64,000 nt of DNA. It comes from an uncultured Myxococcales bacterium. GTDB taxonomy: Bacteria > Myxococcota_A > Polyangia > Palsa-1104 > JAEUJZ01. The stretch spans positions 4,161 through 68,160 of the forward strand of contig CALMML010000112.1 of NCBI GenBank assembly GCA_937868485.1, read 5' to 3'. The translations under genes and the position numbers were made by a program. The notes below the pieces were generated by a model. It saw nothing but the letters and a program-made list of their open reading frames with translations, searched no databases and had not been told where the DNA came from. Shown here piece by piece: positions 21,189 to 26,222 of this stretch; position 1 is the stretch's first letter; the number at the start of each line of letters is the position of its first letter.

Positions 21189-22451
21189 CTACTCGGTCTT
21201 GCCGAAGCGTCCGCGCAGCCGCGCCCACAGACCCTTGGGTCCGCCGGGGTTTGTAGGCTGGGTCACTTCAGGGCCGTTTGTGGGGGCGGCAATGGCAACA
21301 GGCTCCCCGCTCTTTTGCGCCGCTTCGATGGGGGACACCAGCTTGCGCAGCTGCTCATCCGATGCCCGCCCGGTCAGCTGCACACTGGCCGAGCCATCGA
21401 TGACCTGCGCGGTCATGACCATGGAAGCATCGCGGTCTTCGCCCGTGGGCAGCTCAGCGCGCTGACAGGCGGCAATCTCGGCCACCTCTGCTTCATAGTC
21501 GGACCGAAACAGCGTGCGCAGGTGGTCCACCATCTCTTTGGGGTCGAAGCGATAAGGCGCCAGAAACTTGTGCAGATCCTGCGCCAGTTCCAGAGCCGAG
21601 GCATAGCGGTCGGCGACATCGCGAGCGAGCGCCTTCATGACAATCTTGTCGAGCGCTTCGGGCACACGCCGGTTGAACTTCGATGGCGGCAGGACCTCGG
21701 CGTTGCGGACACGCTCCATCAGCTGAAACTCGGTGTCGCCCCGGAACAGCTTTTCGGTGGTCAGCATCTCGTGAAGGATGATGCCGGTCGAAAAGACGTC
21801 GGTTCGGGCATCGACGGGCATGCCGCGAATCTGCTCGGGCGACATGTAGCTGAACTTGCCCTTGAGCACACCGATTTCCGAGGTGAACTTGACCATCGCC
21901 TGAGCGATGCCAAAGTCGAGCAGCTTGACCTGTCCATCCCAGGCGATGCGGACGTTCGAGGGCGAGACGTCACGGTTGACGATGCTAAGCGGCTTGCCAT
22001 CGGCATCAATCAAGGTGTGGGCGTGGTGAAGGCCCTCGGACATCTTGGCGGCGATGTAACAAGCGTGAGGAAGCGGAATGCGCCCGCTGGTTTCCTGACA
22101 ACGTCGCAGGATCTGGGTCAGATCCTTGCCACCGATGTACTCCATCGCGATGAAGTAGCGGCCTTCGGTGCGTCCGATCTCAAAGGTGCGGACGATGTTG
22201 TCATGGCTCAGCAGGACGGCCAGCTTGCCTTCGCGGACGAACATCTCCACAAAGCGTGCTTCCTTGGCAAGCTGAGAGCGCATGCACTTGACGGCGTAGA
22301 GACGACCGCCGCTCTGGCGACTGCGGGCCCGGTAGACCTCGGCCATACCGCCCCGTGCAATAAGACCAAGGAGCAAGTATTTGCCAAACGGCTGCGGGTG
22401 CTCAGGAGACCCCGGATCGAGTTTGTCGGCTGCGGAATCCATTTCGCCCAA
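21189..22451 (-). CDS. Hanks-type Ser/Thr protein kinase (catalytic loop NRD instead of HRD).
   Basis: GGMAEVY, AVK, NRDVSPSN, DFG and SYMSPEQ motifs. 420 aa, cytoplasmic. Confidence 0.85.
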   Translation of the reverse strand: MGEMDSAADKLDPGSPEHPQPFGKYLLLGLIARGGMAEVYRARSRQSGGRLYAVKCMRSQLAKEARFVEMFVREGKLAVLLSHDNIVRTFEIGRTEGRYFIAMEYIGGKDLTQILRRCQETSGRIPLPHACYIAAKMSEGLHHAHTLIDADGKPLSIVNRDVSPSNVRIAWDGQVKLLDFGIAQAMVKFTSEIGVLKGKFSYMSPEQIRGMPVDARTDVFSTGIILHEMLTTEKLFRGDTEFQLMERVRNAEVLPPSKFNRRVPEALDKIVMKALARDVADRYASALELAQDLHKFLAPYRFDPKEMVDHLRTLFRSDYEAEVAEIAACQRAELPTGEDRDASMVMTAQVIDGSASVQLTGRASDEQLRKLVSPIEAAQKSGEPVAIAAPTNGPEVTQPTNPGGPKGLWARLRGRFGKTE

Positions 22452-22519
22452 GTGTTTGTCCGTAAGACGTTATCAGCCCGTCGAGATCCTGTCTATGCAG
22501 CGGGCCCGACTCTCACCAA

Positions 22520-23728
22520 GTGGGATGTGTGGCCCAGTGTAGAAACCGATCTTGGAAAGCAGCGTCTCGACAGACCGTAGCTATGCACTTTACCATGTGG
22601 TCTTGGGCTTTTGTGCAGGGACTACTTGGCGCCTTGGGCAAAGACCCGACTTGCTTTCAACTGGGCAACCAACTGGGTAATGAACGGGCGATCGCCATGG
22701 CTCAGGGACACCTTGGAACCGGGACCGGAACGAAGCCTCGCACCGAGCGAGCAGTGGCAGTCGTGGTCGAGCGCAATCGGGCCACCGGCAAGCGTCTGGC
22801 ACGGCTGCTGGTCAGTGCGGGTTATACCGTAAAGACCTACGAAGACGAGACGACTGCGATTGCGCCCATCCTTCACAGCGATCCGCAGGTCGGACTGTGG
22901 CTGGTGGTTGGAGAAGCAGCGGCGGCGTCAGCGATTGCCGAAGGGCTCAAGACGCCACCGGCTGGCAAGCGCTGTGTTGGTGTGATCTATGGCGCGGGGG
23001 ATGAAGTCGATGCCGCGACAATGTTTGAGCACACCGGCATCGCAGCAGTGCTCGGGATAAAGCCCGGCTCGGCTCGACCTGATCTAGAGTCGGAGCTGCT
23101 CAGCATCGCGGCGTTTCTGCGCGGTCAGCCGCTGCTGCCGGTTCAAGGGTTTCTGCTCTGGGGCGCGCAGGCGTTTTCGGCCAGCATCACCAACATCGGT
23201 GGACGCGACGCAGCAGAGTCTCGGCTGGTCAAGCTGTGCGCCGAACATCTGAACATCTCGCGCCGGGTGGCGGACAGCCTGGCGGAAGTGGTCCATGAGC
23301 TGATCACCAACGCGATGTACGACGCGCCGGTCGACGCACAAGGCAGAACCCGCTACGCGCACGACCGCACCGCCGCGATCGAGCTGCCCGCAGAAGACAA
23401 GGTGATCTTCCGCTACGGCACCGATGGCATGCGCCTGGCGGTGGAAGTGGTGGATCACTTTGGGCGACTGCGACGACCCGATCTGGTGCGTTCGCTGCGG
23501 CGGGCAGCGAGCGGGCAAGTCAACCGAGGCCAAGGCGGTGCGGGCATCGGACTGTCGCTCGTGTGTCGGACCTGTCCGCTTGTGCAGGTGGATGTAGAGC
23601 CGGGCAGCCGCACCAGGCTGACCGCTGTCATCGATTTAGAGCCAGGACGCGCGACGGAAGGTGGCAAGCCTGGCCGCAGTATCATTTTCCCAGACTTGAC
23701 CGCCCACGCGGTTAGGCTCGATTCTTAA
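22520..23728 (+). CDS. GHKL/HATPase_c-domain protein (anti-sigma-factor-like Ser kinase) with an N-terminal receiver-like domain that lacks canonical Asp residues.
   Basis: N box HELITNAMYDA, G1 DHFG and G2 GQGGAGIGLSLV in the C-terminal half. The N-terminal half has a CheY-like alternating pattern. The true start may be an internal M (e.g. MAQGHLG). Confidence 0.6.
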   Translation: MGCVAQCRNRSWKAASRQTVAMHFTMWSWAFVQGLLGALGKDPTCFQLGNQLGNERAIAMAQGHLGTGTGTKPRTERAVAVVVERNRATGKRLARLLVSAGYTVKTYEDETTAIAPILHSDPQVGLWLVVGEAAAASAIAEGLKTPPAGKRCVGVIYGAGDEVDAATMFEHTGIAAVLGIKPGSARPDLESELLSIAAFLRGQPLLPVQGFLLWGAQAFSASITNIGGRDAAESRLVKLCAEHLNISRRVADSLAEVVHELITNAMYDAPVDAQGRTRYAHDRTAAIELPAEDKVIFRYGTDGMRLAVEVVDHFGRLRRPDLVRSLRRAASGQVNRGQGGAGIGLSLVCRTCPLVQVDVEPGSRTRLTAVIDLEPGRATEGGKPGRSIIFPDLTAHAVRLDS

Positions 23729-26181: not shown

Positions 26182-26188
26182 GCACGCA

Positions 26189-26222
26189 GACCGGCAGCGG
26201 AGTCAGGGATTCCGCGCCGGTC
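26189..26222. terminator. Strong hairpin between convergent genes, a candidate bidirectional terminator.
   Basis: GACCGGCaGCGGA-gtcagggat-TCCGCGCCGGTC, a 12-bp stem with one bulge, between the stops at 26181 (+) and 26233 (-). Confidence 0.5.

Follow-up and report, generated by a model that had tools for sequence, protein, structure and literature searches.

We analysed a 64,000-nucleotide stretch of DNA from an uncultured Myxococcales bacterium (contig CALMML010000112.1; hereafter the window), which is 99% identical to a contig of 'Myxococcales bacterium MAG-84' and carries a candidate partner-switching module of three genes. On the minus strand lies the gene for a soluble Hanks-type Ser/Thr kinase of 420 residues (21189–22451, counted from a TTG at 22451, with an ATG at 22442). 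Divergent from it, on the plus strand, are gene 2 (22697–23728), which encodes a receiver-like domain joined to a GHKL serine kinase domain of the RsbW/SpoIIAB type, and gene 3 (23743–26181), whose product combines tandem STAS–Zn-ribbon units, a linker, a transmembrane (TM) helix, a predicted periplasmic domain and a PDZ domain. All three genes lie where a preliminary description of this DNA had put them. The homologues compared were 120 listed gene-3 proteins and the best 80 of 167 genome loci, all from metagenome-assembled genomes (MAGs), and the species scan used one genome per GTDB species. Of these 80 loci, 74 had enough flank for gene 2 to be scored; the Hanks kinase was scored at 60.

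Gene 2 was described at first as starting at 22520, where the longest open reading frame (ORF) indeed begins with a GTG. Its homologues, however, are mostly ~348 residues long and start at a Met equivalent to ATG 22697, and the sole sigma70-like site (22567–22596, + strand) falls inside the longer ORF; the most likely start is therefore ATG 22697, which gives a protein of 343 residues. This start leaves a divergent intergenic region (22452–22696) between the Hanks kinase and gene 2 that holds the sigma70-like site, a weak one (1 found against 0.5 expected). The AlphaFold2 (AF2) model of gene 2 has two domains, with a mean predicted local distance difference test (pLDDT) score of 84.2; like our other predicted structures, it was built on an alignment of 31–40 sequences. 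A search of the gene-2 family profile against PDB sequences gave weak receiver matches only and no GHKL match, and it was the comparison of folds that settled the GHKL identity this search had missed. Of 33 family members, 31 match Pfam HATPase_c (E ≤ 0.01) in the GHKL ATP-binding domain (23189–23641), and the boxes of this domain are kept family-wide: the N box HELxTNAMYDAP with E201 and N205 (HELITNAMYDAP, 23297–23329), the G1 box D253xFG256 (DHFG, 23453–23464) and the G2 box GGAGIGL (23534–23554). Residues E201, N205, D253, G256 and G281–G285 are invariant in 31–33 homologues. With its ATP-binding boxes intact and an antagonist gene adjoining it, gene 2 has the marks of a GHKL anti-sigma-type serine kinase.

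The N-terminal domain of gene 2 adopts a receiver (REC) fold (22745–23071) that is degenerate, with an incomplete acidic pocket (DD, D, T/S, K). The D12/D13 pair of E. coli CheY is replaced by E25-R26, and an hhalign comparison of CheY with the gene-2 profile was insignificant. By our reading of the alignment, the putative acceptor position is a Glu in the window's clade and an Asp in distant clades. The succession of a degenerate receiver and an RsbW/SpoIIAB-like domain set out in the preliminary description is thus upheld. We rejected a two-component response regulator identity because the complete receiver acidic pocket is absent, and a histidine-kinase reading because the defining features are missing.

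Gene 3 begins at a GTG (23743), 14 nt beyond the stop of gene 2 and preceded by AAGGTAGG. Since the first residues of its product, xxYEERS, are conserved in homologues, the 812-residue reading stands. In the AF2 model of residues 9–396 (pLDDT 88.9), we observe two beta-alpha STAS units, STAS1 (23794–24072) and STAS2 (24349–24645), each followed by a beta-hairpin/knuckle element with a CxxC…CxxC arrangement. The cysteines of Zn ribbon 1 (C122, C125, C152 and C155; 24106–24207) are invariant, and those of Zn ribbon 2 (C310, C313, C340 and C343; 24670–24771) are invariant or nearly so. Of the 120 listed homologues, 118 have all four CxxC motifs with unvarying spacing; the other two are a fragment and a protein that lacks a motif. 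Gene 3 accordingly has the fold of a STAS antagonist, twice over and with a C4 zinc ribbon on each copy as first described, and STAS2 is an internal, diverged copy of STAS1 (hhalign probability 98.2%, E = 3.7e-14).

The two copies differ at the position that matters most for a phospho-switch. The STAS1 motif ISSFGIR(E/Q)W is invariant among homologues and contains the putative phospho-acceptor S68 (codon 23944–23946). The family profile aligns the S68 region to the 'SS' of 4hyl (...MSSAGLR...), and helix 2 of the modelled STAS1 begins exactly at this motif. We take S68 to be the counterpart of Ser58 of SpoIIAA (in the 'DSSGLG' register), on the basis of aligning the two by hand. A conserved phosphorylatable Ser at the N terminus of STAS helix 2 is thus present in STAS1 and absent in STAS2, where Asp249-Pro250 aligns to the STAS1 SS; Pro250 (24490–24492, motif IDPxG) is nearly invariant.

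C-terminal to the second ribbon, the two features named in the preliminary description, a Pro-rich linker and a single TM segment, are both in place. The linker (24895–25209), rich in Pro, Ser and Gln and also in Thr, spans ~105 residues with a Pro content of 24% (25 Pro in 106 residues). Its long Pro-rich form is specific to the window's clade, and the linker is absent or short in the ~750-residue homologues of gene 3. One hydrophobic segment follows, at residues 490–509 (25210–25269; hydropathy 2.1 over 20 residues), as it does in nearly every homologue, and gene 3 has no N-terminal signal peptide. Zn-Cys4 and STAS domains are cytoplasmic in all known cases, and HtrA-type PDZ domains are periplasmic. 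From the lack of a signal peptide, the single TM helix and the placement of these two kinds of domain on opposite sides of it, we infer that gene 3 is bitopic in the N-in/C-out sense, with the N-terminal 490 residues in the cytoplasm and the C-terminal ~300 residues in the periplasm.

The presumed periplasmic part opens with a family-specific domain of ~190 residues (25297–25875) that carries conserved P, W, G and YWE motifs and has no relative in PDB or Pfam. The PDZ domain after it (25885–26118) was correctly recognised at the outset: it matches PDZ_2 at 37 bits, above threshold, and the gene-3 family profile matches DegP-like and DegQ PDZ domains at E = 1.7e-13. At the x-Phi-G-Phi carboxylate-binding loop (~25850–25880, on the N-terminal edge of the PDZ domain), distant clades have 'MGA', which aligns to the 'MGI' of DegQ, and the window's clade has 'AKV' and so lacks the Gly. 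This loop, together with the clade-specific linker, suggests that the window locus may sense differently from the majority form. The ~750-residue homologues (P0025–P0115) also bear a conserved tail after the PDZ domain, …NIWDDNPEE or …NVWDR…RDDPTQ, that is missing from the window's clade; the position of this conserved extreme C terminus next to the PDZ domain suggests an intramolecular PDZ ligand.

The three genes are kept together across Polyangia. Gene 3 was found in 167 GTDB species and has at least 358 homologues, whose named sources are Myxococcota/Polyangia MAGs except for two rows labelled Pseudomonadota; in databases they go by 'PDZ domain-containing', 'anti-anti-sigma regulatory factor' or 'hypothetical'. 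The gene pairing at the centre of the preliminary description is conserved at species level: of 74 loci, 70 have a co-oriented gene-2 homologue immediately 5′ of gene 3, and among the four that do not, one carries a frameshifted copy. In relatives the two genes are −4 to 14 nt apart. In 56 of 60 loci, the other strand encodes a divergent Hanks kinase that we regard as orthologous from its score of 470–900 bits, generic kinases reaching ~100–200 bits. Between clades, gene 2 is only 32–34% identical and the N terminus of gene 3 only 40–48% identical; the three-gene unit is conserved despite this deep divergence. There are, in addition, gene-3-like genes with neither gene 2 nor the Hanks kinase nearby (L064, L070 and L046), which may be paralogues or rearranged copies, and four loci (L034, L038, L042 and L063) with a second, weak gene-2-like gene (113–121 bits) a few kb away.

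Of the three proteins, the Hanks kinase is the best conserved: its kinase domain (21600–22367) is 71–83% identical across distant clades. It matches Pfam Pkinase (E = 4e-37), and its nearest solved structure is PknB (E = 3e-38). A hydropathy scan found no TM or other hydrophobic segment. K55, D161, N166 and the DFG motif are invariant among 66 orthologues, and so is an unusual catalytic loop, NRDVSPSN (residues 159–166, 21954–21977), which aligns to HRDVKPAN of PknB; compared with the canonical HRDxKxxN, every one of the 66 has Asn for His and Ser for the catalytic-loop Lys. The protein may thus be an atypical enzyme or a regulated pseudokinase. It ends in a variable Pro-rich tail followed by a basic amphipathic motif that is conserved across clades (GLWARLRGRFGKTE, 21192–21233; GLWARLRGRFGK, GLW.RLR.., with GFWGSLFKKKK in other clades), possibly a membrane-targeting helix resembling those of MinD and FtsA. 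This kinase is the obvious candidate partner of the switch.

The same kinase could instead be the real writer, placing phosphate on the linker or STAS domains of gene 3 or on the gene-2 receiver, as PknD does with Rv0516c, with the GHKL protein serving mainly as an ATP-dependent binding partner in an anti-sigma or anti-adaptor manner. Its divergent placement in nearly all scored loci and its exceptional conservation would suit such a role, as would its solubility and lack of a sensor of its own, the abundance of Ser and Thr in the gene-3 linker and the precedent for phosphorylation of a STAS protein by a Ser/Thr kinase (PMC1847690). The Ser/Thr-rich linker, however, is limited to the window's clade, and the replacement of Lys by Ser and of His by Asn in 66 of 66 orthologues argues for atypical or reduced phosphotransfer. 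Moreover, the invariant GHKL motifs and the invariant STAS1 Ser would be needless if gene 2 did not phosphorylate STAS1. We therefore regard this arrangement as improbable.

Outside the Polyangia there is an older relative of the module, with a classical composition. The most distant gene-2 homologue, P0170 from Bacteriovoracia (324 residues, E = 2e-8), belongs to a cassette with the order HAMP-SpoIIE(PP2C), STAS–Zn-ribbon protein of 154–173 residues, kinase, Maf and YggS, which occurs at three Bdellovibrionota loci (those of P0188 and P0242, and L088 at positions 650–4068). Its small protein consists of one STAS–Zn-ribbon unit that is homologous to STAS1 (hhalign 98.8%, E = 6e-17) and keeps both its acceptor Ser (RINSVG) and its CxxC pairs. 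Such stand-alone STAS–Zn-ribbon proteins have at least 530 close relatives and form a family of 3,234 representative clusters (E ≤ 1e-3 among 1.84 billion library proteins), whose taxonomy is almost absent from cluster look-ups; a few members are tandem, at 278–362 residues. The Bdellovibrionota cassette and the abundance of this family indicate that the pair of STAS–Zn-ribbon protein and receiver-like kinase is a pre-existing partner-switching cassette with PP2C input. The comparison also brings out a large uncharacterised STAS–Zn-ribbon family with a dedicated receiver-like/RsbW-like kinase, which databases call 'anti-anti-sigma factor' or 'hypothetical'.

Despite the homology of the kinase and of the STAS–Zn-ribbon unit, with the same Ser and the same CxxC pairs, the two cassettes are built differently. 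A single soluble STAS unit in Bdellovibrionota contrasts with a unit in Polyangia that is duplicated and continues into a TM helix and a periplasmic module. The membrane sensor sits on the phosphatase in the former and on the antagonist in the latter, and the order of STAS then kinase is reversed in Polyangia. Finally, the Bdellovibrionota cassette lacks a Hanks kinase, whereas in the Polyangia neighbourhood a Hanks kinase takes the place of the PP2C.

The flanks of the module vary within Polyangia. At most loci (~55 of 87, for example L003, L004 and L087), a TPR/PEGA-like gene stands between the Hanks kinase and gene 2, and gene 3 is followed on its 3′ side by a PEGA/TPR protein, a small ORF, a FadL-like (Toluene_X) barrel, two unknown genes, an OmpA/TSP_3 protein and a TonB-dependent receptor. 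No homologue of this TPR/PEGA/FadL-like/OmpA-like cluster was found anywhere in the 64-kb window.

Envelope genes beside the pair (PEGA/TPR, FadL-like, OmpA-like and TonB-dependent receptor) speak for a reading with no phospho-switch at all, in which the STAS domains would act as a phosphorylation-independent scaffold or ligand module, as in MlaB and the SLC26 STAS domains, and the GHKL protein would serve an envelope-assembly machine as an ATPase or a chaperone-like clamp. These genes are absent from the window, however, and the locus encodes neither an ABC transporter nor an SLC26 membrane domain. The best STAS matches are phosphorylatable antagonists, the acceptor Ser is invariant and the kinase motifs are intact, and the PP2C in the homologous Bdellovibrionota cassette implies phosphorylation. 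Of all the explanations weighed here, a scaffold without a switch seems to us the least credible, and very improbable in itself.

A sigma factor, the usual output of partner switching, does not accompany the module. No sigma-factor domain lies within ~±10 kb in the window, where the preliminary description saw no obvious sigma factor nearby, or in the Pfam-annotated flanks of five relatives' loci. Nor is there a PP2C in the Pfam-annotated flanks of five loci or, by tblastn with a SpoIIE-domain query, in the window or 87 loci, though the genome may encode one elsewhere.

The module can also be compared with the stressosome of RsbR, RsbS and RsbT, a soluble 1.8-MDa cage with an N-terminal cytoplasmic sensor and the RsbU phosphatase as its output. 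By analogy, gene 3 would act as RsbR/RsbS and gene 2 as RsbT: the kinase would be held on the tandem STAS domains at the membrane until a periplasmic signal led to STAS1 phosphorylation and its exit, and the freed kinase would bind and activate the Hanks kinase or an unlinked PP2C, with no sigma factor sequestered. RsbT is established as a member of the same GHKL subfamily as the best fold matches of gene 2, and the fusion of sensor and STAS, the lack of a nearby sigma factor and the conserved third partner all fit a logic of release and activation. The locus does have a sensor-fused STAS protein and an RsbT-like kinase, but it differs from the stressosome in domain order, membrane location and the missing RsbU. 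None of the soluble cage, the N-terminal cytoplasmic sensor and the RsbU output is observed here; known stressosome sensors are N-terminal in large soluble cages, whereas the gene-3 sensor is C-terminal and beyond the membrane, and no RsbU-like target was found by tblastn in the window or the 87 loci. We consider such capture and release unlikely; the present data do not separate it from an RsbV/RsbW-like arrangement.

The explanation that we favour, and hold to be rather more probable than its competitors taken together, is that the locus encodes a sigma-factor-independent, membrane-anchored variant of the partner-switching phospho-switch. It builds on the folds and motifs of the domains, the logic of the topology, the synteny and the homology with the PP2C/STAS/kinase cassette. 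In this scheme, gene 2 would supply a soluble RsbW/SpoIIAB-type kinase, co-translated with gene 3, that docks on the unphosphorylated STAS1 of gene 3 and phosphorylates S68, thereby changing the binding partners. STAS2, which has no acceptor at the canonical site, would most likely be a permanent docking or structural partner. The periplasmic domain and PDZ would, through their state, bias the kinase–STAS interaction across the membrane. The soluble Hanks kinase, possibly tethered to the membrane by its C-terminal amphipathic helix, would be the third component, either as the target or partner that the switch releases or as an additional kinase that phosphorylates gene 2 or gene 3. The partner-switching interpretation of the preliminary description is thereby supported: STAS and GHKL folds, a pairing kept in related genomes and an acceptor Ser in STAS1 were all found, and the STAS–Zn-ribbon/kinase/PP2C cassette of Bdellovibrionota adds to them.

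Several observations weigh against this proposal. The window's own gene-2 protein scores 23 bits against Pfam HATPase_c, under the gathering threshold (GA) of 26.4, and its gene-3 STAS score in Pfam is just below the gathering threshold. Thus the profile matches foreseen in the preliminary description were obtained in the window for PDZ_2 and across the family for HATPase_c, but not for STAS and HATPase_c in the window's own proteins, and it was these sub-threshold Pfam and NCBIfam matches that made family-wide scans and structure prediction necessary. Likewise, of the two STAS domains in which a phospho-acceptor was looked for, one has the invariant S68 and the other Pro250; with Pro at the acceptor position, STAS2 cannot be a canonical phospho-switch, and only STAS1 can. 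The positive-inside rule does not discriminate between the two orientations of gene 3 (+0.94 versus +0.81). In the window's clade, canonical binding of C-terminal peptides by the PDZ domain is uncertain because the carboxylate-binding loop lacks its Gly, and the Ser in place of the catalytic-loop Lys makes the activity of the Hanks kinase uncertain. Finally, no PP2C, sigma factor or other output gene is conserved beside the Polyangia module, which leaves the reset step and the output missing.

A more detailed form of the membrane-anchored switch can be sketched, though only tentatively, as its several parts together are a good deal less probable than the general proposal. The antagonist itself would be the receptor: a periplasmic ligand would alter the accessibility of STAS1, so that the GHKL kinase is captured or released, and this would gate a membrane-tethered atypical Hanks kinase or pseudokinase. 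The result would be a three-protein GHKL–Hanks relay without a sigma factor, which might control envelope or outer-membrane functions across Polyangia.

Partner switching is usually drawn as a soluble cascade in which the signal enters via a phosphatase and leaves via a sigma factor. Here the antagonist is predicted to be membrane-anchored, is duplicated and equipped with zinc ribbons, and has its own PDZ domain on the presumed periplasmic side, and in place of a phosphatase it is a Hanks kinase that is conserved as the third partner. If our proposal is true, the module would provide a new route by which information on the envelope crosses the inner membrane, and it would link GHKL-type and Hanks-type serine phosphorylation physically in Polyangia, whose kinomes are very large and poorly understood.

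The remaining neighbours of the module in the window are varied. An enhancer-binding protein with FHA, Sigma54_activat and HTH_8 domains is encoded at 10626–12014 (− strand), some 9 kb away from the Hanks kinase, which might conceivably target it, since FHA domains read phospho-Thr. Two minus-strand ORFs that converge on gene 3, at 26233–28416 (727 residues) and 28235–29179 (314 residues), have no Pfam match. The close relative L086 has genes of 656 and 300 residues that resemble them in size and position, again with no Pfam match, and the wider family lacks them. Farther downstream, at 31696–35619 (+ strand), lies the gene for a large secreted-type M36 (fungalysin) metallopeptidase with PA and PKD-like domains, preceded by a gene for a Flg_new_2 repeat protein.

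Like the RsbV–RsbW–RsbU and SpoIIAA–SpoIIAB–SpoIIE systems of Bacillus, the locus has an antagonist of STAS fold, whose STAS1 carries a Ser at the acceptor position. It also shares with RsbV/RsbW and SpoIIAA/SpoIIAB a kinase of the GHKL anti-sigma type with intact N, G1 and G2 boxes and the adjacency and translational coupling of the two genes. It differs from the Bacillus systems in that the antagonist is an 812-residue membrane protein with two STAS–Zn-ribbon units and a periplasmic PDZ domain, the kinase gene precedes the STAS gene, and the kinase has an N-terminal receiver-like domain. Where those systems have a PP2C and a sigma factor, the neighbourhood here has neither, and its conserved third gene is a Hanks kinase.

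Other relatives share single features with the module. In HsbR/HsbA of Pseudomonas, a receiver and an RsbW-like kinase act on a STAS protein. The same combination acts in SypE/SypA of Vibrio fischeri, where the output is not a sigma factor (PMC8256260). SypE and HsbR, however, have a PP2C domain in addition, and their receiver is functional, whereas gene 2 lacks a PP2C domain and has an incomplete acidic pocket. The All4160/HenR/Alr3423 system of Anabaena places a STAS domain within a larger protein and is a sigma-independent phospho-switch acting on an envelope-related process (bioRxiv 10.64898/2026.04.08.717354); in All4160 the STAS domain is fused to a glycosyltransferase, whereas gene 3 joins it to a TM helix and a PDZ domain in the periplasm and has no enzymatic domain. 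In Mycobacterium tuberculosis, the Hanks-type kinase PknD acts on Rv0516c, a STAS anti-anti-sigma homologue (PMC1847690). PknD is a receptor kinase with its own TM helix and sensor; at our locus the kinase is soluble and has an atypical catalytic loop, and it is the STAS protein that bears the TM helix and sensor. DegS and RseP sense envelope stress through PDZ domains, and gene 3 resembles them as a predicted inner-membrane signalling protein with a PDZ domain of HtrA type on its periplasmic side. It has no protease domain, so signal transfer would be conformational rather than proteolytic, and the window's clade differs further in lacking the Gly of the carboxylate-binding loop.

Membership in the better-known STAS families was also considered. 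In SLC26/SulP transporters, a polytopic transport domain (~14 TM helices) precedes the STAS domain; we rejected this identity because gene 3 has only one hydrophobic segment, located after the STAS domains, and no Pfam Sulfate_transp match. An Mla (MlaB–MlaF) identity was rejected because no ABC ATPase adjoins the gene in the window or in most relatives, and the partner is a GHKL protein. With the defining features tested and absent, the locus is not a member of the SLC26, Mla or two-component systems. In the literature searched, we found no description of a bitopic tandem STAS–Zn-ribbon protein with a periplasmic PDZ domain, or of its pairing with a Hanks kinase; an eLife paper on conflict systems names STAS solely in connection with Csx3. 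Sigma-independent switches and STAS domains within larger proteins are already known, for example from SypA/SypE and All4160, and it is the architecture described here that constitutes a new variant of partner switching.

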